Shown here: piece after piece, positions 5,934 to 56,964 of the stretch
How positions within the stretch are numbered: the stretch's first letter is position 1
How the letters are laid out: every line of letters starts with the position of its first letter
Source of the DNA: Chloroflexota bacterium
GTDB lineage: Bacteria > Chloroflexota > Limnocylindria > Limnocylindrales > CSP1-4
Direction: 5' to 3'
Assembly (NCBI GenBank): GCA_021786385.1
Contig: JAJYNJ010000027.1
Location: 20,760 to 84,759, forward strand
DNA: 64,000 nt
The notes under the pieces: generated by a model
Told to the model about the DNA's origin: nothing
What the model saw: only the letters and a program-made list of their open reading frames with translations
Databases searched by the model: none
Translations under genes and position numbers: made by a program

Positions 5934-6085
5934 GGTTCGCGGGACCTCCTCGTGCGAGCGCGCCCGTTGCGTGCGGGCTCAACTGGCCGGCTCCGCTCCG
6001 GCCTGGACATGCGCTAGGAGTGATTATGCCCGCTCCGCCGGGCGACGATAGCCGCGTTCCGCCACCACCACGTACGCCGCGCCGC

Positions 6086-7600
6086 CTACTGCGCCGGGTC
6101 GCCCCAGATCGTGTAGTGCCAGCCCTTCTCGGCCTCGCCGCTCAGCTCCACCATGACGTGCTTGACCTGGGTGTACTCCTCGACCGAGTACGCCGAGAGG
6201 TCTTTGCCGAACCCGGACTGCTTGAAGCCGCCGTGGGGCATCTCGCTCGTGAGCGGCAGGTGGTCGTTGACCCAGACTGCGCCGAAGTCGAGCGCCTTGG
6301 CCACGCGCATGGCACGGAAGACGTCGCGCGTCCAGACCGAGCTCGCCAGTCCGTAACGCACGTCGTTCGCCTGCTCGATCACCTCCGCTTCGGTGTCGAA
6401 AGGGAGGACCGTGAGGACAGGACCGAAGATCTCCAGCTGGCAGATCTCCGCGTCCTGCGCGACGTGATCGACCACCGTCGGCTGGAAGAACGCGCCGTTC
6501 AGCCCCGGCACCGTCGCGCGTGCGCCGCCGATCAGGACCCGCGCGCCCGCCTCCCTGGCGCGGTCGACGAAGCCCTGCACCCGCTGCAGCTGCGCTTCGC
6601 TGATCAAACTCCCCATGTCGGTGGCGCGATCTCGGGGATCCCCGACCCGTACCGTCCGCACGTGGTCGAGCAGCAGCTCCAGGAAGCGGTCATAGACCTC
6701 GCGCTGGATATAGAGCCGCGTGGCCGCCGTGCAGTCCTGGCCGGCGTTCACGAGCCCCGCGACGACGGCACCCCGCGCGGCCGCCTCCAGGTCGGCGTCG
6801 CCGAAGACGATGAACGGCGCCTTCCCGCCCAGTTCTAGGTGCAGACGCTTGAGGGTCCCGCTCGCGGCGGCTTGGATCTTCTTGCCGGTCTCGGAATCGC
6901 CCGTCAGCGAGACCATGTCGATGCCCGGGTGGGCGGCAATCGCCGCGCCGACGAGATCGCCCCGGCCGGTGACGATGTTGAGGACCCCGTCGGGCAGGCC
7001 CGCCTGCTTCGCCAGGTCGCCGAGCATGAGGGTCGTGAGCGGCGTCGCGGTCGCCGGCTTGAGCACCACGCTGTTGCCGGCGGCGAGCGCCGGTCCGATC
7101 TTCCAGACCGCCATCATCAGCGGGTAGTTCCACGGCGCGATCTGGCCGACGACCCCGATCGGCTCGCGCCGGATCAAGCTCGTGTGGCTCCCGCTGTACT
7201 CGGCGGCGGCCTTCCCCTCGAGGTGCCGGATCGCCCCCGCGAAGAAGCGGAGGTTGTCGGCGGCGAACGGGATGTCGGAGTCGCGGCGCAGCTTGATGGC
7301 CGTCCCGGTCTGCGCGGTCTCGACCTCAGCCAGCTCGTCGGCGTGCGCGTCGATCAGGTCCGCCAGGCGGTGCAGCACTGCGACCCGCTCTGGCCCGTAC
7401 ATCGCCCGCCAGCGTCCGTCGCGAAAGGCTTGCCGCGCGGCGGCCACGGCGCGATCCACGTCCGCCGGCGTGCCCGCTGGCACACGGCCGACCAGCTCGG
7501 CCGTGGCCGGGTTGCGTACCTCGATCCATGCCCCTCCCGACGACTCGACCCACTCGCCGTCGATCAGCATCCTGCGGTCCGTGACGGTGCCGATGGCCAT
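6086..7600 (-). CDS. NAD(P)-dependent aldehyde dehydrogenase
   Basis: The catalytic Cys context GQDCTAATR and general-base context LELGGKAP are present, together with IAPWNYP. The start was refined to the ATG at 7598-7600 (MAIGTVTDRRMLIDGEWV), giving about 505 aa. Confidence 0.85.
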   Translation of the reverse strand: MAIGTVTDRRMLIDGEWVESSGGAWIEVRNPATAELVGRVPAGTPADVDRAVAAARQAFRDGRWRAMYGPERVAVLHRLADLIDAHADELAEVETAQTGTAIKLRRDSDIPFAADNLRFFAGAIRHLEGKAAAEYSGSHTSLIRREPIGVVGQIAPWNYPLMMAVWKIGPALAAGNSVVLKPATATPLTTLMLGDLAKQAGLPDGVLNIVTGRGDLVGAAIAAHPGIDMVSLTGDSETGKKIQAAASGTLKRLHLELGGKAPFIVFGDADLEAAARGAVVAGLVNAGQDCTAATRLYIQREVYDRFLELLLDHVRTVRVGDPRDRATDMGSLISEAQLQRVQGFVDRAREAGARVLIGGARATVPGLNGAFFQPTVVDHVAQDAEICQLEIFGPVLTVLPFDTEAEVIEQANDVRYGLASSVWTRDVFRAMRVAKALDFGAVWVNDHLPLTSEMPHGGFKQSGFGKDLSAYSVEEYTQVKHVMVELSGEAEKGWHYTIWGDPAQ

Positions 7601-48443: not shown

Positions 48444-50462
48444 CTACCGGCCCGGCACGCTGCCGGCGGGGGGCCCGCTCGCCGCGGCTTCGCCCGCGGT
48501 GGACGTCTTCGCCGCTGCCGCCACGCCGACGAACTGCAGCCCCAGCTCGGCCCACTGCACCGGATCGGGCTCCGACGGCGCCTCGAGCATCAGGTCGGTC
48601 CCGGAGGCCGTCTTCGGGAACGCCATCACCTCGCGGATGTTGGTCTGGTCGGCGAAGAGGGCGGCCCAGCGGTCGATCCCGAGCGCGATCCCGCCGTGCG
48701 GCGGCGCGCCGTACTCGAACGCCTCGAGGATGCCGCCGAACAGGTCACGCATGCGCTCCTGGGAGTACCCCTGTAGGGCGAAGCTGCGCTCGAGCAGGTC
48801 GCGCCGATGGATGCGCACGGAGCCGCCGCCTAGCTCCCACCCATTGAGCGCGATGTCGTACTGCATGGCGCGGGCGCGGCCAGCGGGGTCTTCGGGCGAC
48901 GGCTGGTAGGGGTCGCCGGACGCCGTCACCAACAACGCTTCATCTTCCGGAACGACGCCGGAGAACGGATTGTGGGTCGCATCCCAGCGGCCGTGCTCGG
49001 CATCCCACTGGTACATCGGGAAACGGTGCACCCAGCAGTACGCCAGCTCCTTCGGATCGGCCAACCCGAGTCGCTCGCCGAGCTCGCGGCGCAACCGCCC
49101 GAGCACGTCGGCCGTGACCGCCGGGCGGTCCGCGACCACGAGCAGCAGATCGCCGGGGGCCGCACCTGCCGCGCGGGCCAGCGCCCGCAGGCGTGCCTCG
49201 CCGAGGAACTTGCCGATCGGCGAGTGGACCGTCCCGCCGGTGTCGACCGCGACGTGCACCAGGCCGCGAGCCCCGTAGCGTCGCACGAACGCCGTCAGCT
49301 CGTCGATCTCCCGGCGGCTCGCGGCGGCCATCCCCGGCGCCACGATCCCCTTGACGCGCCCGCCCGAAGCGAGGGCGTCGTCGAAGACGTGGAAGCCGGT
49401 CGCGGGCGTCGCGGCTGCGAATGCCGTCTCTCCAACCGTGCGGGCTTCTTCGTGCGGCGCGCCGTTGCGGTCTGCGCCCGGCGTCTCCGCGAGCAGCGCC
49501 GGCGCCAGGTCGACCAGCTCCATACCGAAGCGCAGGTCGGGCTTGTCGGATCCGTACCGCTCCAGCGCCTCCTCGTAGGTGAAGCGCGGGAACGGCACCT
49601 CGCGGAGCGGTCGGTCGGGCACTACCGCGCGGCTCACCTCGACGATCATGGCCTCCACGAAGTCCATCACCGTTTCCTCGCGCACGAAGCTCATCTCGAG
49701 GTCGAGCTGTGTGAATTCGGGCTGCCGGTCGCCGCGCAGGTCCTCGTCGCGGAAACAGCGCGCGATCTGGAAGTAACGATCGATGCCGGCCACCATCAGC
49801 AGCTGCTTGAGCTGTTGCGGGCTCTGCGGCAGGGCGTAGACGGTGCCGGGCTGCAGTCGGCTGGGCACGATGAAGTCGCGCGCACCTTCCGGCGTCGACT
49901 TGATCAGGATCGGGGTCTCGATCTCCACGAAGCCAGCGCGGTGGTGCGCATCGCGGATCGCCCGCACGAGGTTGGCGCGCAGCAGGAGTCGATCCCGCAT
50001 CGGCTCGCGCCGGATGTCGAGGTACCGGTAGCGCAGGCGCAGCGACTCGTCGATCGGCGCGTCCGGCTCGTTGATGTAGAAGGGCGGCGTCTTTGCTTCG
50101 GACAGGATCTCGAGGTCCCTGGCGCGGAGCTCGATCTCGCCCGTGGCCAGCTTCGGGTTCTCCGTGCCCGGTAGCCGTCGGGCGACCAGGCCGGCGGTCG
50201 AGACGACGAACTCGACCCGCACGCGCGCGGCGACGGCGTGGGCGGCGGGCGACTCGTGGGCGTCGACGACGACCTGGGTGATCCCGTGGCGGTCCCGCAG
50301 GTCGAAGAAGATCAGGTGGCCGTGGTCGCGGCGCCGGTGCACCCATCCGGCGAGGCGGGCCTCCCGGCCCGCGTCGGTGCCGCGCAGCTGGCCGCAGGTG
50401 GCGGTGCGATACGGGGTCGCGAGGTCGTCGAGGGCGTGCAGGGGCTCCGTGGCGTCGGTCAT
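48444..50462 (-). CDS. aspS: aspartate--tRNA ligase (with C-terminal extension)
   Basis: Start refined to MTDATEPLHALDDLATPYRTATCGQLR. Class II motifs are present, including FQIARCFRDEDLRGDRQPEFTQLD, and there is a GAD insertion domain. Confidence 0.85.
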   Translation of the reverse strand: MTDATEPLHALDDLATPYRTATCGQLRGTDAGREARLAGWVHRRRDHGHLIFFDLRDRHGITQVVVDAHESPAAHAVAARVRVEFVVSTAGLVARRLPGTENPKLATGEIELRARDLEILSEAKTPPFYINEPDAPIDESLRLRYRYLDIRREPMRDRLLLRANLVRAIRDAHHRAGFVEIETPILIKSTPEGARDFIVPSRLQPGTVYALPQSPQQLKQLLMVAGIDRYFQIARCFRDEDLRGDRQPEFTQLDLEMSFVREETVMDFVEAMIVEVSRAVVPDRPLREVPFPRFTYEEALERYGSDKPDLRFGMELVDLAPALLAETPGADRNGAPHEEARTVGETAFAAATPATGFHVFDDALASGGRVKGIVAPGMAAASRREIDELTAFVRRYGARGLVHVAVDTGGTVHSPIGKFLGEARLRALARAAGAAPGDLLLVVADRPAVTADVLGRLRRELGERLGLADPKELAYCWVHRFPMYQWDAEHGRWDATHNPFSGVVPEDEALLVTASGDPYQPSPEDPAGRARAMQYDIALNGWELGGGSVRIHRRDLLERSFALQGYSQERMRDLFGGILEAFEYGAPPHGGIALGIDRWAALFADQTNIREVMAFPKTASGTDLMLEAPSEPDPVQWAELGLQFVGVAAAAKTSTAGEAAASGPPAGSVPGR

Positions 50463-50499
50463 GGCCGGCACATCGTACGGGATGGGGACGGGGGGCGGG

Positions 50500-51786
50500 T
50501 CAGCCATGCCGATGCGACTGCTCGCCGCGCTCGATCTCGCGGGCGAGGTCCGCAAGCGGCACCGGGTGCTGCGAGGCCGCGCGGAGGTCGCGCAGCTGGA
50601 CCAGTCCCTCCCGCAGCTCGTCGCCCAGGATCACCGCGAAGTGGGCGCCCTCGCGCGCGGCCTGTTCGAGCTGGCGTGAGAGGCGGCGTTGCCCGAGGTC
50701 GGCACGCGCGCAGATCCCGCCGTGCCGCAGATCGGTGGCGAAGCGCAGCCGCGAGACGGTGTCCGCGGGGTCGGCCCCGGTCACGAAGACCGCCGGATGG
50801 GCCGGCGCGGGCGCCGCGATCCTCTCCTCGGCAAGTGCCAGCACCACACGGTCGAGACCGAGCGCGAAGCCGATGCCGGGTGTCGGCTTGCCGCCGAGCA
50901 ACTGCACCAGGCCGTCGTAGCGGCCCCCGCCGCCGAGCGCCTGCTGCTGCCCCTCGGCCCCCTCACGGTAGAACTCGAAGGCGGTGCGCGTGTAGTAGTC
51001 GAGCCCCCGCACCAGCGACGGCTCGAGTCGAACCGGCACTCCCAACGCGTCGAGATGCGCACGCACGGCATCGAAATGGGTACGGCACGCGTCGCACAGC
51101 CGATCCACGATGCGGGGCGCCGCCGCGATCAGCGCCGCCATCTCCGGATCCTTCGAGTCGAGCAGGCGCAGTGGGTTCGTCGCGAGCCGGCTCCGTTCCA
51201 ACTCCGGCAGCCGCTCCCGGTGGGAGGCGAAATAGGCGGTGAGCTCCGTGACGTACGCTGGCCGGCAGGCGCCGTCGCCGATCGAATTGAGCAGCACCTT
51301 CACGTTGGGCAGCCCGGCTTCGACGTAGAAGCGGTGACCGAGCTCGACGATCTCGGCGTCGATCGCGGGCCCCGGGTCCCCGATCGCCTCCACGTCCCAC
51401 TGCCAGAACTGTCGGTAGCGACCGGCCTGCGGCCGGTCGTAACGGAACATCGGCCCGAGATACTGGACGCGCACGGGTTGCGGCAGCGTGTGCAAGCCGT
51501 GCTGCACGTATGCCCGCACGATGCCCGCGGTCCCCTCCGGCCGCAGCGCCCACGACTCCGCTTCCTCGCTGCGCGGCTGGATACGGAACAGCTCCTTCTC
51601 GACGATGTCGGTCGCCTCGCCGACGCCGCGCTCGAAGACCGCCGTCTGCTCGAAGATGGGCGTCTCGATCGAGGCGTACCCGTAGCGACGGGCCAGGTCG
51701 GATGCGATCGCGGCCAGGCGCTCCCAGGCCGGCCGCTCGGCGGGCAGCAGGTCCCGCGTGCCGCGCGGGGCTCGGAAGGAGGGCAT
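50500..51786 (-). CDS. hisS: histidine--tRNA ligase
   Basis: RGTRDLLP, the motif 2 FRYDRPQAGRYRQFWQ, and motif 3 GGGRYDGL. Confidence 0.85.
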   Translation of the reverse strand: MPSFRAPRGTRDLLPAERPAWERLAAIASDLARRYGYASIETPIFEQTAVFERGVGEATDIVEKELFRIQPRSEEAESWALRPEGTAGIVRAYVQHGLHTLPQPVRVQYLGPMFRYDRPQAGRYRQFWQWDVEAIGDPGPAIDAEIVELGHRFYVEAGLPNVKVLLNSIGDGACRPAYVTELTAYFASHRERLPELERSRLATNPLRLLDSKDPEMAALIAAAPRIVDRLCDACRTHFDAVRAHLDALGVPVRLEPSLVRGLDYYTRTAFEFYREGAEGQQQALGGGGRYDGLVQLLGGKPTPGIGFALGLDRVVLALAEERIAAPAPAHPAVFVTGADPADTVSRLRFATDLRHGGICARADLGQRRLSRQLEQAAREGAHFAVILGDELREGLVQLRDLRAASQHPVPLADLAREIERGEQSHRHG

Positions 51787-51894
51787 GCCCGAAGTCTAGC
51801 CGGTACGCGGCCCGGTCATGGCGACGCGTCGCGGCGCTCCCGCCACCTCCGCGGCGCGGCACCGGGATCGTCCCGTCACGGATAATGGACCCCG

Positions 51895-52575
51895 ATGCGC
51901 CACCGACCAGCCGCCCCCTGCCGCCCGTTCGTCGTACGGCTGCGCGTGCGGCCCGCCCTGCGGTCGCTCGGCGCACGCTTCCTGCTCCGCGGCTGGCTCG
52001 CCATCACGATCGGCCGAATCGTCATCAGCTGGCGGCCGCTCGACCCGCCCGAACTGGCGCACGAACTGGAGCACGTGCGCCAGTGGCAGCGGCACGGCCC
52101 GCTCGGCTTCGTCGCCCGCTACGCCGCCGCATCGCTGCGCGCGGCACTCGAGGGCGGCCACTGGTATCGGGACAACGCCTTCGAACGCGCGGCGGGGCGG
52201 GCGGCCGCGCGCGCAGCCGAGATCGCACGGTCTGGGTGCGCCTGCGACCCACCAAATCGAGGAGCGGAGATATCCATCCAGTGGCCGGGCGACTGGGGCG
52301 ACGCCGGCGCTCGAGGCACGTGCTCCGCAGGTGCCCCTCAGCTGAGGGCGCGCTGCACCGAGAAGACGTCCTTGACCTGTTCCAGCCGCGAGAGGACCCG
52401 CGCCAGCTGCGCCACCGACGAGACCTGCAGCGTGGCGTTCACGGTGGCCGTGTGGTCGGGGCGCGTCTCGACGTGCGCCGCCACGATGTTCACCTTCTGC
52501 TCGGCCACCACGTTCGTGATGTCGGAGAGCAGCCCAGTGCGGTCGTACGCGTCGAGGCGGATCGCGATCGGATAG
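51895..52575 (+). CDS. DUF4157-like putative zincin (HExxH) mini-protein; 3' end uncertain
   Basis: The first 110 or so codons have coding-like GC3 and read ...GWLAITIGRIVISWRPLDPPELAHELEHVRQWQRHG..., like the DUF4157 HELTHVVQQ core. After about 52240 the GC3 collapses, and the tail runs antisense into relA. Confidence 0.3.
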   Translation: MRHRPAAPCRPFVVRLRVRPALRSLGARFLLRGWLAITIGRIVISWRPLDPPELAHELEHVRQWQRHGPLGFVARYAAASLRAALEGGHWYRDNAFERAAGRAAARAAEIARSGCACDPPNRGAEISIQWPGDWGDAGARGTCSAGAPQLRARCTEKTSLTCSSRERTRASCATDETCSVAFTVAVWSGRVSTCAATMFTFCSATTFVMSESSPVRSYASRRIAIG

Positions 52576-54581
52576 GTGCGTTCCGCGGCGCCTTCCCACT
52601 CGACCTCGATCAGCCGCTCGACGTCCTTCTCGTGCTGGATCGTGACGCAGTCCCGCAGGTGCACCGTCACGCCCTTCCCGCGCGTGATGAACCCGATGAT
52701 CGGATCGCCGGGGATGGGGTGACAGCAGGCGGCAAAGCGCACGAGCAGGTCGCCGACACCCTTGACGCGCACGCCTCCCGTCTGGCTGGGCGGGAGCGGC
52801 GGCGCGACCGGTGGCAGCACGGTCTCGTTGGAGTCATCGACGACCCCCATGCGGATGACGACCTGTTGGGCACTCACCGCGCCGTAGCCCACGGCAGCCA
52901 GGAAATCGTCCACGCTCGGGAACTTGTAGAGCTCGGCCATCTCCGCCACACGGTCCGGCCCGACCCGCTCGAGCGATGTGCGGGCCAGGCGGCGCAGCTC
53001 CCGGTCGAGTGCCTCGCGGCCGTGCGCGATGTTCTCCTCGCGCTGCTGGCGCTTGAACCACTGCCGAATCTTTTCGCGGGCGTGCGTCGTCCGCACGATC
53101 GAGAGCCAGTCGCGCGAGGGTCCATGGGCGGCCTTGGTGGTCACGATCTCGACGATGTCACCGTTGCGCAGCTTGTAGTCGAGCGGCACCAGCCGGTTGT
53201 TGACCTTCGCGCCGATGCAGCGGTGTCCGACGTCGGTGTGAATGCGGTACGCGAAGTCGAGGGGCGTCGATCCCGCCGGGAGGTCCTTCACCTCGCCTTT
53301 CGGCGTGAACACGAAGACCTGGTCCTGGAAGACGTCGAGCTTGAGCCCCTCGACGAACTCGGTGGCGTCCGCGACCTCGCGCTGCCACTCCATCAGCTGC
53401 CGGATCCAGGCGAGCTTCGCGTCGTAGTCCCGATCGGACCGGGAGCCCTCCTTGTAGCGCCAGTGCGCGGCGATGCCAACTTCGGCGATGCGATGCATCT
53501 GGTGAGTCCGGATCTGCACCTCGAGGGGATGCCCTTCCAGCGCGATCACCGCCGTGTGCAAGCTCTGGTAGCCGTTCGCCTTGGGCATCGCGATGTAGTC
53601 GTCGAACTGCCCGGGGATCGGACGCCAGAGGGAATGCACCACGCCCAGCGCGGCGTAGCAGTCCTTGACCTCGTCGACCAGCACGCGGATCGCGTAGACG
53701 TCGTAGACCTCGTCGAAGTTCGCGGCTTTGCGCTGCATCTTGCGGTGGATGCTGTACAGGTGCTTGGGGCGCCCCGACAGCTCGGCCCGGATCCCGCTCG
53801 CCTCGAGCGCCTCTTGTAGCTCGGCCATGGCGCGCTCGACGTAGGACTCGCGCGCGGTCCGCCGCACCTCCAGCTGCTGCGCCAGCGACCGGAACGCCAC
53901 CGGCTCCAGCACCTTGAACGCGAGGTCCTCGAGCTCCCACTTCATCTGCCAGATCCCGAGCCGCTCTGCCAGCGGCGCGTAGATCTCGAGCGTCTGCCGG
54001 GCGATCCGCTGCTGCTTCTCGGGAGGAAGTCCCGCGATCGTGCGCATGTTGTGGAGCCGGTCGGCGAGTTTGATCAGGACGACTCGGACGTCCTCGGCCA
54101 TGGCCAGGAACATCTTGCGGATGTTCTCGGCCTGACGCTCCTCGTGGCTGTGCGCGCTGAACTTGGAGAGCTTCGTGACGCCGTCCACGAGCTGCGCCAC
54201 CTCGGGCCCGAAGCGCTCCTCCACGTCTTGCAGCGAGTACTCGGTGTCCTCCGGGATGTCGTGGAGGAGCGCGGCCTGGATCGCGACCGGGTCGAGGCCG
54301 AGCTCCGCGAGCGTCTGAGCGGCCGCAATGGGGTGCGTGACGTAGGGCTCGCCGCTCGCGCGTTTCTGATCGGCGTGTGCCTCGAGGGCAAACCGATACG
54401 CGCGTTCGATCCCCGAGAGATCGGCCAGCGGATGGTGGCTGCGGACCTCGTCGATCAGGCGGTTCGCGAGCGCGTCGATCTGTTCCGGGGTGGGGGCCGG
54501 TTCCTCGCGCTCGCGGGCCGCTGCCGCGGCCCGGCGGGCGGAACGGGAGGGGACGCTCGCAGGCTCGATCGACATGGGCAC
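52338..54581 (-). CDS. relA: bifunctional (p)ppGpp synthetase/hydrolase Rel
   Basis: An HD hydrolase domain (HDIPEDT) is followed by a synthetase domain (RPKHLYSIHRKM), and then TGS and ACT domains. Confidence 0.85.
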   Translation of the reverse strand: MPMSIEPASVPSRSARRAAAAAREREEPAPTPEQIDALANRLIDEVRSHHPLADLSGIERAYRFALEAHADQKRASGEPYVTHPIAAAQTLAELGLDPVAIQAALLHDIPEDTEYSLQDVEERFGPEVAQLVDGVTKLSKFSAHSHEERQAENIRKMFLAMAEDVRVVLIKLADRLHNMRTIAGLPPEKQQRIARQTLEIYAPLAERLGIWQMKWELEDLAFKVLEPVAFRSLAQQLEVRRTARESYVERAMAELQEALEASGIRAELSGRPKHLYSIHRKMQRKAANFDEVYDVYAIRVLVDEVKDCYAALGVVHSLWRPIPGQFDDYIAMPKANGYQSLHTAVIALEGHPLEVQIRTHQMHRIAEVGIAAHWRYKEGSRSDRDYDAKLAWIRQLMEWQREVADATEFVEGLKLDVFQDQVFVFTPKGEVKDLPAGSTPLDFAYRIHTDVGHRCIGAKVNNRLVPLDYKLRNGDIVEIVTTKAAHGPSRDWLSIVRTTHAREKIRQWFKRQQREENIAHGREALDRELRRLARTSLERVGPDRVAEMAELYKFPSVDDFLAAVGYGAVSAQQVVIRMGVVDDSNETVLPPVAPPLPPSQTGGVRVKGVGDLLVRFAACCHPIPGDPIIGFITRGKGVTVHLRDCVTIQHEKDVERLIEVEWEGAAERTYPIAIRLDAYDRTGLLSDITNVVAEQKVNIVAAHVETRPDHTATVNATLQVSSVAQLARVLSRLEQVKDVFSVQRALS

Positions 54582-54664: not shown

Positions 54665-55768
54665 TCAGCGGAGTCGGCGCGCCAGGCGCCAGCCCAGCCC
54701 GAGCAACGGCCGCGGGGCGAAGTCGTGGGCGCGTACGAAGACCACGCCGCGGGCGCCGAACCCGCGCTTGAACTCGTAGAGGTTCCAGAGCGGATGGCTG
54801 CGGTTGAACGGCAGCCCTGGCGCGTCCCGCGTGTCCACGCCGCCCAGGTCGTAGACCGTGAACCCGTGCGCCGCACCCCAGCGCATGATGGCCCACTGCA
54901 GCAGGTGGTTGGCTCGCGTTGCCCGGAGGTCCGCGTCGTCCGGCGACCCCGCCACGTGCGAGACCAAGCGCCGGCCGCAGTGCAGGAGGACGACGCCGTT
55001 CTGGCGTCGGCCGCCGGCGACGGCGAACCAGAGGCTGGCCAAGCCGGCCGCCCCGAGCGCCCGCCACTGGTCGAGCTGGTAGTCCCGATCGCGCACGATG
55101 AACCCTTCGCGCCGGCCCGTGGCAGCGAACATCTCCCAGAAGCACGCCAGCGCCTCTTCACGCCCGAGCGGGTCGGCGAGGTCGACCCGCTCGGCAGTCA
55201 CGCCCGCGCGCCGCGCCTTGTTGATGTTCCGGGCGGTGCTGTCACCGAGCAGCTCGTGCTGCGCGCCCTCGTCCTCCCGGAGCGGCACGAGCATGGCTGT
55301 GCGCGAGACCTGGACCTCCCGCGGCGACGGCCGGAAGCCTTCACGAGCGAGCGCGACGGCGGGCTCGCTCCCCTCCTCCCAGGCTGGGTCGATCGTCAGG
55401 ACGGCCGCGTAGCGCGCCCGTGCTACGCGACGCAGCCCAGCGAGCGCCGCGGCCACGGCCTCCGCGTCGCTGCGCAACAACACCGGCCCCCGGGGCGCGT
55501 AGAGGTAGGTGAGCCGGCCGAGCGGGCCGGGAAGGCGCCGGGCGAAGGGCCGCTCCTGCAGCGCGGCCACAGCCACGCGCTCGCTCCCGAGCTCGAACAG
55601 CACGCGCAGAGGCCGCCATCCGAGCCGCGCCTTGCTCTCGCCCCAGGCGTGCGACTGGAACACCTCGCCGCGGGCACTGCGGACGGCCAGCGCATCCCAC
55701 TCGACGGGGTCCCACGCCGTGGCGTCCACGACGCGGAGCGAAGCCGGTTCGGCGGCGGACTGTGACAC
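54665..55768 (-). CDS. FemAB-family peptidoglycan interpeptide-bridge aminoacyltransferase (paralogue 2)
   Basis: The C-terminal hallmark LYEFKRGFGARGV is present. The start is probably the GTG near 55768 (VSQSAAEPASLRVVDA...). The M-start ORF in the track over-extends into the upstream paralogue. Confidence 0.6.
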   Translation of the reverse strand: MSQSAAEPASLRVVDATAWDPVEWDALAVRSARGEVFQSHAWGESKARLGWRPLRVLFELGSERVAVAALQERPFARRLPGPLGRLTYLYAPRGPVLLRSDAEAVAAALAGLRRVARARYAAVLTIDPAWEEGSEPAVALAREGFRPSPREVQVSRTAMLVPLREDEGAQHELLGDSTARNINKARRAGVTAERVDLADPLGREEALACFWEMFAATGRREGFIVRDRDYQLDQWRALGAAGLASLWFAVAGGRRQNGVVLLHCGRRLVSHVAGSPDDADLRATRANHLLQWAIMRWGAAHGFTVYDLGGVDTRDAPGLPFNRSHPLWNLYEFKRGFGARGVVFVRAHDFAPRPLLGLGWRLARRLR

Positions 55769-55827
55769 GGCGGGGATGATACGCGCCACGCCCCGCTGCG
55801 CAGAGGCCGCGCGACGCCGGGGTTCCG

Positions 55828-56964
55828 TCACGCGCCGCGGCCGGGCGCGGGTCTGCCCCACCGCCTTCGGAGCTGCTCGCGCAGGTCGCGTATGAGATAC
55901 CACGCCGGCGAGAGCACGAGGTCGAACGTGCCGGGATGGCGCAGTGGCGTGCCCCCAAAACCTCGCTTGAAGAGACTGAAGCCGGCCCACGCCGGATCGG
56001 CCGACGCATCCTCCGCCTCGGCCACGCCCCACAAGTCGAGCGACTCCCGCCCGTCGGCGGCGAGCGCTTCGACGCACGCCCAGAGGGCAGCGTAGGCGCC
56101 GTGGGCGTGGCGCAGCCCCGGTTCCCGCAGCGACGCCGCGTAGAGGTAGAAGGCGCGCGGCCCGACCGCGAGCGTCAGGCAACCCGCGATGGGGCGGTCG
56201 TCGAGTTCGGCGAGCACCAAGTAGGCGTCGCCGCGCGCGCCGAACGTGGCTGCGATGGCCTCGAAGGCGGCGCGTGGCCGCACTCGGAAACCCGCCCGCG
56301 ACCCAGTCTGGGCCAGCAACGCGGCGAACGCCGCATACGCGGCCCGATCCCCGTCGCGCACCACGCGCGACCGGACGCCCTCGCGCGCCGAACGACGGAC
56401 GAGGTTGCGGGTGTCCTTCTCGAGTCCAGCGAAGACCGCTGCGGACCCGGCGCGCAGGTCCACGACGCGGGTTGTCGGCGCCTGGAGGTCGGCCCGCGCC
56501 CGGCGCAGCCCATGGGCCCGCAAGAGGGTCGCGAGCTGCTCGGCGGAGGTGCCGGCGGTCGCGCGCGGGTCACACTTCAATACGATCCCCTGCTCGCGCC
56601 GACCCAGCTCCCGCAGGCCGCCGAGCAACGTGGCGAGGACCGCGGCGCCGTCGGCGGCGCCCGCATCCCAGGCCGGTCCGTGCGGGACGTAGAGCACGCG
56701 GTGCGTCGCAAACGGGCCGCGCCCCGCGGTCGCCTCCCGCACGAGTACCTGCGCGACGCCCCGCAGATGGCCGTCCGCATCGCTCGCCAGCCAGCGCTCC
56801 GGCCGCTCGCCACCGGTCGCCGCGACCGCGCCCCAATCCCACGCCTGCAACGGGTCGGCGGACGGGAGCCTCGCCACGAACGCGTCCCAAGCACCGCGGT
56901 CAGCGGCATCGGCCGCGCGCACGACGAGTGGCGGCGCCGCGCGGCGGGTCGGGACTCCGCTCAC
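55828..56964 (-). CDS. FemAB-family peptidoglycan interpeptide-bridge aminoacyltransferase (paralogue 1)
   Basis: 378 aa with a GFSLFKRGFGGTP motif. It overlaps the murE stop by 4 nt. Confidence 0.65.
   Translation of the reverse strand: MSGVPTRRAAPPLVVRAADAADRGAWDAFVARLPSADPLQAWDWGAVAATGGERPERWLASDADGHLRGVAQVLVREATAGRGPFATHRVLYVPHGPAWDAGAADGAAVLATLLGGLRELGRREQGIVLKCDPRATAGTSAEQLATLLRAHGLRRARADLQAPTTRVVDLRAGSAAVFAGLEKDTRNLVRRSAREGVRSRVVRDGDRAAYAAFAALLAQTGSRAGFRVRPRAAFEAIAATFGARGDAYLVLAELDDRPIAGCLTLAVGPRAFYLYAASLREPGLRHAHGAYAALWACVEALAADGRESLDLWGVAEAEDASADPAWAGFSLFKRGFGGTPLRHPGTFDLVLSPAWYLIRDLREQLRRRWGRPAPGRGA

Follow-up and report, generated by a model that had tools for sequence, protein, structure and literature searches.

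A conserved gene for a small HExxH protein between hisS and relA in Chloroflexota, with probable remote homology to DUF4157

Introduction

DUF4157, also named eCIS_core (Pfam PF13699), marks the toxins of contractile injection systems, and its activity is not known (PMC8213781, PMC11297309). The domain typically lies N-terminal to toxin domains and is a marker of extracellular contractile injection systems (eCIS) (PMC8213781, PMC11297309), where a structural or chaperone role has been speculated for it (PMC11297309). The C-terminal domain of VgrG2b from Pseudomonas aeruginosa (PDB 6h56) is a crystallographically defined, zinc-binding, thermolysin-like gluzincin. Its motif residues are H935, E936, and H939, the third ligand is E983, which tops a later helix, and homologs of the domain are "frequently annotated as DUF4157" (PMC6899460). 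Here we describe a gene, called mini-zincin below, that encodes a small, free-standing HExxH protein. It lies in the spacer between hisS and relA in a 64,000-nucleotide stretch of a Chloroflexota genome of the order Limnocylindrales (contig JAJYNJ010000027.1, positions 20,760 to 84,759), referred to here as the window. A preliminary description of the spacer had proposed a DUF4157-like reading frame, unusual in being free-standing and wedged into a housekeeping operon, that had lost its stop codon, was frameshifted, or was decaying.

Results

The mini-zincin gene is real, under purifying selection, and conserved in its position. The plus-strand open reading frame (ORF) at 51895 to 52575 encodes 226 amino acids and holds the core quoted in the preliminary description, GWLAITIGRIVISWRPLDPPELAHELEHVRQWQRHG; an in-frame TAA at 51883 to 51885 makes the ATG at 51895 the first possible start. 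Over 51895 to 52240, the GC fractions at the first, second, and third codon positions (GC1, GC2, and GC3) are 0.79, 0.60, and 0.88, compared with 0.77, 0.49, and 0.90 for hisS and 0.71, 0.42, and 0.91 for relA, in a window with 72.7% GC overall. Because GC1 exceeds GC2 in this frame, a minus-strand gene sharing the same third positions is excluded. The coding-type pattern, which had been reported from GC3, spans about 100 codons and fades at about 52165 to 52200; its collapse had been placed after about 52240. Past 52338 the high GC3 merely mirrors the third codon positions of relA, to which the ORF does run antisense, as had been described.

A homolog search with the 147 residues that lie outside relA returned 125 proteins at an E value of ≤0.01, nearly all of 90 to 140 amino acids and none with a Pfam domain. 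Their named sources are metagenome-assembled genomes of "Candidatus Limnocylindrales"/Limnocylindria or Chloroflexota, and gene callers had independently called the gene in relatives. Searching 1.84 billion cluster representatives with a profile extended the family to 1,518 proteins at an E value of ≤1e-3 (137 at ≤1e-10). Neither the ORF nor the ORFs in alternative frames had a significant match in direct scans against Pfam and NCBIfam, and a paralog was sought elsewhere in the window and not found.

Seventeen positions are invariant in an alignment of 55 homologs (W34, A36, I37, W46, R47, E53, H56, E57, H60, Q63, W64, G68, Y76, Y91, N94, E97, and A100), which turns ragged after about residue 105. 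A second alignment, of 102 sequences spanning the diversity of the wider family, leaves E57, H60, Q63, E97, and A100 invariant, with H56, A36, T38, G40, G68, Y76, Y91, N94, and F96 present in at least 90%. Beyond the core, family members differ in the length and sequence of the tail. In comparison with the closest relative (locus L002), Nei-Gojobori counting gave 10 synonymous and 4 nonsynonymous changes in the core, codons 1 to 105, for a ratio of nonsynonymous to synonymous rates (dN/dS) of 0.15, and 5.5 synonymous and 14.5 nonsynonymous changes in the tail, codons 106 to 139, for a ratio of 0.85. The core ratio against more distant relatives is 0.17 to 0.37. Homologs, core dN/dS, and codon-position pattern together uphold the earlier proposal that the plus strand carries a genuine protein gene with an HExxH core.

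The more distant family members are 110 to 200 amino acids long and carry an extra N-terminal region, often hydrophobic and resembling a transmembrane (TM) segment; Pfam and NCBIfam scans assigned them to no family. Many members of 160 to 200 amino acids have such a hydrophobic TM-like segment (among P0168, P0187, P0192, P0230, and P0260). From this, membrane anchoring appears to be frequent in the wider family, and the anchor to be missing in the Limnocylindria clade. N-terminal parts of two distant members hold a GH25 muramidase domain (P0149, 595 amino acids) and a partial isochorismatase domain (P0252, 180 amino acids). One protein, P0131 (335 amino acids), joins the C-terminal part of a DUF2461 protein to a mini-zincin and may be a fusion or a frameshift artifact.

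The length of the ORF in the window reflects the loss of a stop codon. In a DNA alignment, the window and an 88%-identical relative (protein P0002, loci L001 and L002) are collinear and in frame through codon 139, which rules out a frameshift as the source of the long ORF. At codon 140 (52312 to 52314) the window has CGA and L002 has TGA, a single T-to-C change. Both P0002 and P0003 end at 139 amino acids, and P0001, a 99%-identical protein from another assembly with a difference at residue 42, has the same 226-residue read-through. By this alignment and P0001, the change is a genuine single-base stop loss in the lineage and neither a frameshift nor an assembly error. The change adds 87 codons, ending at 52575; from 52338 these are antisense to relA, in a frame almost free of stops at high GC content. 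Since the tail past about residue 105 is unconstrained and disordered already, the extension may well be tolerated. Of the three fates suggested in the preliminary description, the lost stop codon is thus the correct one, frameshifting is rejected by the alignment, and decay is contradicted by the core dN/dS and by the family-invariant residues, all of which are intact in the window copy.

AlphaFold2, run with the 55-sequence alignment, gave a mean predicted local distance difference test score (pLDDT) of 83.7 and a predicted template modeling score of 0.72, with a pLDDT of 95 to 97 over residues 41 to 110 and of about 54 in the tail. The predicted elements are a strand (residues 15 to 18), a helix (22 to 29), two strands (36 to 39 and 42 to 45), and two further helices (51 to 85 and 95 to 114). 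The HExxH residues H56, E57, and H60 lie in the helix from residue 51, and the invariant E97 and A100 lie in the helix from residue 95, with E97 at its start, 37 residues after H60. Both histidines and the catalytic glutamate of the HExxH motif that define gluzincins (clan MA(E)) are present, E57 and H60 being invariant and H56 found in at least 90% of the 102 sequences. On this pattern, E97 is the probable third metal ligand, and the set of invariant E57, H60, and E97 plus H56 suggests a minimal gluzincin. The core is very basic (isoelectric point, ∼11.8), no TM segment was predicted (the maximum Kyte-Doolittle 19-residue average is 1.25), and no signal peptide was found in the ∼100-residue protein. 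The profile of the 55-sequence alignment had no match among PDB sequences at an E value of ≤10.

Profile-profile comparison connects the family to DUF4157. An alignment of 54 genuine PF13699 proteins, retrieved with a consensus-like probe, was matched by hhalign to the 55-sequence alignment with a probability of 79% (E value, 1.6e-5; 34 columns) and to the 102-sequence alignment with a probability of 93.3% (E value, 2.6e-7; 38 columns). Both alignments pair WLAITIG-x-I...ELAHELEHVRQW with A-AYTVG-DVVF...LLAHELTHVVQQ, and in this segment and in the consensus sequences the mini-zincin shows A-x-T-V-G and a second strand ahead of the PF13699 motif LAHELxHVxQ. Of the 55 members, 42 have a subthreshold match to PF13699 (best E value, 0.01), the one family to recur. 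The AlphaFold model obtained for a genuine DUF4157 protein (pLDDT, 88.6) contains a strand at residues 51 to 53, a helix at 56 to 64, strands at 69 to 72 and 75 to 78, and an HExxH helix from residue 88; the succession of strand, helix, two strands, and HExxH helix is therefore found in both models. Membership in PF13699 by threshold fails, and remote homology to DUF4157, which emerges only when profiles or structures are compared, is supported; the nearest relatives are shown to be DUF4157 and VgrG2b. Long contigs also carry short PF13699 proteins that stand alone (P0359, 76 amino acids on an 81-kb contig, and P0381, 79 amino acids on a 61-kb contig), so that small size alone is not exceptional and the free-standing state is less unusual than had been thought.

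The gene has a stable place in its clade. Individual look-ups of five relatives (P0002, P0012, P0086, P0098, and P0015) all gave hisS on the minus strand, the gene on the plus strand, and relA on the minus strand. In the GTDB species set, sampled as one genome per species, tblastn confirmed at least 414 genome stretches, and the best 80 of these are almost all from Limnocylindria or Chloroflexota genomes. Among the loci that were fetched, the gene has relA and/or hisS as a neighbor in 35, in every case on the other strand (both genes in 31), and hisS lies within about 330 bp in 23 of the 35. Another 50 loci show neither neighbor, and most of these share a second context: a rhomboid protease gene (minus strand), an optional small ferredoxin-like or helix-turn-helix gene, a GT2 glycosyltransferase gene (plus), the mini-zincin gene (plus), a DUF3352 gene (minus), and ABC transporter genes. 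That GT2 gene, which has a CysS_C-like N terminus, lies directly upstream and overlaps the start of the mini-zincin gene; examples are L013, L016, L019, L030, L034, and about 40 more (match at about 6001 to 6300). Average-linkage clustering of the cores splits the two contexts almost perfectly, with 36 hisS/relA-context sequences and 6 others in one group and 44 others in the second, which places the window gene in a clade with a stably inherited relA-hisS position. The position is not essential to the family as such. It is kept among relatives whose HisS proteins are only 61 to 97% identical, and the proximity of the gene to hisS and relA is best explained by inherited synteny; a functional tie to translation or to the stringent response is conceivable. 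The ORF is thus present in the corresponding spacers of relatives, as a comparison proposed in the preliminary description had asked, and the picture of a stray copy wedged into an operon gives way to that of a vertically inherited gene divergent from hisS.

Neighbors in the hisS/relA clade are BipA, aspS, hisS, relA, FemAB, Mur ligase, and DUF2461 genes, and no eCIS, type VI secretion system (T6SS), or toxin genes were found within ±6 kb of the family loci. A DUF2461 gene often lies between the mini-zincin gene and relA in relatives (L004, 6287 to 6991; L006, 6305 to 7015; L081, 5254 to 5961). In L012, L014, and L018, hisS and the mini-zincin gene are separated by a gene from an ORF cluster that has a Pkinase match in L007, and one relative has an AAA_16 gene between aspS and hisS (L006, 1694 to 4639). 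The features of the window are collected in Table 1.

Table 1. Position and evidence for features of the aspS-hisS-relA region (window coordinates)
Feature	Positions	Strand	Evidence or remarks
aspS	48444-50555	-	ORF layout
hisS (histidyl-tRNA synthetase)	50500-51786	-	PF13393, E 1e-44; divergent neighbor of mini-zincin gene
Divergent intergenic region, hisS start to mini-zincin start	51787-51894		108 bp; sequence
Conserved mini-zincin core, codons 1-105	51895-52209	+	Codon-position GC, homologs, invariant columns, AlphaFold, dN/dS
C-terminal tail, codons 106-139, unconstrained, low confidence	52210-52311	+	Ragged alignment, pLDDT ∼54, dN/dS 0.85
Lost stop codon 140, CGA	52312-52314	+	DNA alignment; TGA in closest relative (L001/L002)
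Read-through extension, codons 141-226 and stop	52315-52575	+	Antisense to relA 3' end from 52338; not conserved as protein
relA/spoT-type (p)ppGpp synthetase/hydrolase	52338-54581	-	HD_4, RelA_SpoT, TGS, ACT_4; full-length; convergent neighbor

The hisS-relA spacer measures 551 bp (51787 to 52337), in agreement with the earlier estimate of about 550 bp. No minus-strand gene was recognized in it, as had been stated; a 267-residue minus-strand ORF (51796 to 52599) has no Pfam or NCBIfam match. The reported absence of dtd, which encodes a D-aminoacyl-tRNA deacylase, likewise stood: with an approximate E. coli Dtd sequence as the query, tblastn found no Dtd in the window at an E value of <1 and none in 87 related loci at ≤0.01. 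Weak Dtd matches near 27.6 kb were dismissed, as they lie inside recN. A T-box or other leader had been named as an alternative explanation of the spacer; no Rfam match was obtained for 51600 to 52500 on both strands at an E value of ≤10, apart from a chance small nucleolar RNA (snoRNA) match of 17.9 bits against a threshold of 50. A scan for sigma-70 promoter and terminator consensus sequences was empty, a result that is uninformative for a Chloroflexota genome of 73% GC, and an inverted-repeat scan of the spacer gave no terminator-like hairpin. A perfect 11-nucleotide inverted repeat, ACTGGCGCACG ... CGTGCGCCAGT at 52053 to 52063 and 52074 to 52084, covers the ELAH-ELE-HVRQW codons and looks like a by-product of the motif, since the codons for L-A-H (CTG GCG CAC) are the reverse complement of those for V-R-Q (GTG CGC CAG). 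In the intergenic region between hisS and the mini-zincin gene, a 10-bp stretch, GCGACGCGTC at 51821 to 51830, is missing from the closest relative (L001/L002).

On the far side of hisS, the longest aspS ORF (TTG start at 50555) overlaps the 3' end of hisS by 56 nucleotides. The overlap called in the near-identical relative is 8 nucleotides (L001, 4616 to 4623), so aspS probably begins downstream of that TTG and is translationally coupled to hisS. Upstream of relA are two tandem FemAB/Acetyltransf_6-type genes (54665 to 56182 and 55828 to 56964, both minus strand) and then a Mur ligase gene, with Pfam labels taken from the near-identical locus L001/L002. These genes suggest the synthesis of peptidoglycan interpeptide bridges in this Chloroflexota lineage.

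Discussion

We favor, with a probability of roughly three in four, the reading that the spacer holds a functional, vertically inherited mini-zincin gene whose product has a minimal gluzincin-type fold, is a remote homolog of DUF4157, and has lost its stop codon in this lineage. In one clade of "Candidatus Limnocylindria" (Chloroflexota), the gene is a fixed feature of the hisS-relA junction, opposite in strand to its two neighbors, and its product would be a soluble, very basic protein of ∼100 residues made of a strand, a helix, two strands, the HExxH helix, and the helix bearing E97. The T-to-C change that made TGA into CGA lengthened an unconstrained tail by 87 codons, mostly across the antisense strand of relA. 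H56, H60, and E97 are predicted to bind the metal and E57 to serve as general base, in a cytoplasmic enzyme that would act on a substrate that is probably a peptide, and the substrate site may be shaped by a family-specific set of aromatic and polar residues (W64, Y76, Y91, and N94). By inference, the protein binds zinc and is a hydrolase, probably a peptidase. That exactly these residues are invariant across a very diverse family favors catalysis over a purely structural or chaperone role, and we consider a minimal zinc hydrolase of the gluzincin type to be somewhat better than an even bet. A bolder idea, for which we hold the odds to be clearly unfavorable, is that the family is a free-living, chromosomally stable branch of the DUF4157 fold, a housekeeping cytoplasmic gluzincin of ∼100 residues and among the smallest HExxH enzymes.

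Several results weigh against the favored reading. The HMMER comparison with PF13699 that the preliminary description had named as a check did not bring the protein into the family: the 226-residue form had no hit at an E value of ≤1, and the 147-residue form reached 10.1 bits (E value, 0.93) over residues 54 to 66 only, below the gathering threshold of 22 bits. The profile-profile alignments span only 34 to 38 columns. The N-terminal E-x-R-F-G-x-D-F-S-x-V-R-V-H motif of DUF4157 has no counterpart in them; E40, G44, and F47 are invariant in genuine PF13699 members, and the mini-zincin shows merely a loosely similar RLRVRP strand. A Foldseek search of the PDB gave nothing significant (best E value, 1.9). 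The best PDB match of the DUF4157 profile was BepA, an M48 protein, over the same motif, and 6h56 was not matched by sequence. The 87-residue read-through could also impair the protein in this particular strain.

The BepA match indicates that the strand/strand/HExxH arrangement is common to M48-type gluzincins and not unique to DUF4157, so that of the earlier assignment the nearest known family stands, and the specificity of the arrangement does not. It also fits a different origin, as an M48/M56-type mini-gluzincin similar to proabylysin, projannalysin, and selecase, in which the likeness to DUF4157 would be that of a generic NAxAxxG-strand-HExxH motif. We regard this as unlikely, if the most serious of the rivals, with the hhalign matches and the recurrence of PF13699 alone among subthreshold hits on the side of DUF4157. 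A degenerating remnant of a larger gene, for a DUF4157 toxin or an eCIS-associated protein, that had inserted into the relA-hisS gap would account for the lost stop codon and the unconstrained tail and would suit a domain that typically precedes toxin domains and marks eCIS (PMC8213781, PMC11297309). It appears improbable, because relatives encode complete proteins of 90 to 140 amino acids with the same core and no toxin domain, in a position kept as HisS diverges, among housekeeping neighbors, with eCIS and T6SS genes absent for 6 kb on either side, and with every invariant residue intact in the window copy.

Two further explanations would deprive the ORF of meaning. In Firmicutes hisS-aspS is under T-box regulation, and the spacer here is long, so that it might serve mainly as a regulatory RNA for hisS (T-box or leader) or as a terminator of relA, with the ORF incidental; the Rfam search gave the chance snoRNA alone and no T-box, merely 108 bp separate the hisS and ORF starts, and the conserved coding core fills the rest, all of which makes this highly improbable. 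The least credible explanation is that the ORF codes for nothing and arose by chance in a genome of 73% GC or as an antisense shadow. Many long spurious ORFs do overlap the region in all frames, the last 238 nucleotides are merely the antisense strand of relA, and no promoter or terminator consensus was found. However, more than 120 homologs with invariant motif residues, independent calls in relatives, a core dN/dS of 0.15, a core pLDDT above 95, and the excess of GC1 over GC2, which excludes a minus-strand gene, effectively refute it, and the bias of substitutions toward synonymous changes argues against a conserved noncoding element behind the homologs.

The favored reading thus adds a small, soluble, single-domain remote relative of DUF4157 with a complete HExxH...E set that is widespread in soil Chloroflexota. 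The wider family, which counts over 1,500 cluster representatives and is covered by neither a Pfam nor an NCBIfam model, deserves a definition of its own, and the protein would be a simple subject for biochemistry. For annotation, the relA-hisS gap is a gene and not the site of a missing dtd, and the 226-residue ORF call overextends a protein of ∼139 residues owing to the stop loss. Should the family prove to be a housekeeping gluzincin branch, its study could reveal the biochemical activity of the DUF4157 domain, and its place beside hisS and relA might reflect a role linked to translation or to the stringent response. These findings do not overturn current understanding.

In comparison with the Bacillus-type relA-dtd-hisS-aspS cluster, relA, hisS, and aspS keep their order and their common strand here, but no dtd is detectable and a gene on the opposite strand occupies the junction, so that relA and hisS form separate transcription units. 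DUF2461, Ser/Thr-kinase-type, and AAA_16 genes are also taken in at the junction in relatives. Among described proteins, DUF4157/eCIS_core shares with the mini-zincin the HExxH in a LAHELxHVxQ context, the preceding A-x-T-[VI]-G and second strand, an identical strand-helix-strand-strand-helix order in the AlphaFold models, and the same top PDB structure. The mini-zincin differs in lying below the Pfam threshold, in lacking FGxDFSxVRVH, in a conserved C-terminal half of its own outside PF13699 (W64, G68, Y76, Y91, N94, E97, and A100), and in a housekeeping neighborhood, apparently vertically inherited, with no association with eCIS, T6SS, or toxins. The closest solved structure is the VgrG2b C-terminal domain, in which E983 likewise stands at the start of a helix, 44 residues downstream compared with 37 from H60 to E97. 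That domain has ∼180 residues, is fused to a T6SS spike, acts in the periplasm, and has an immunity gene partner, whereas the mini-zincin is a free-standing protein of ∼100 residues with no signal peptide, TM segment, or immunity-like partner. The closest concept is that of the minigluzincins (proabylysin, projannalysin, and selecase; ∼105 to 110 amino acids), which, with the M48/M56 catalytic cores, are likewise very small HExxH proteins with a glutamate-bearing helix and the generic strand/strand/helix motif. Set beside these systems, the mini-zincin family is a free-standing one of ∼100 amino acids in a housekeeping context, with its own C-terminal module and no curated model.
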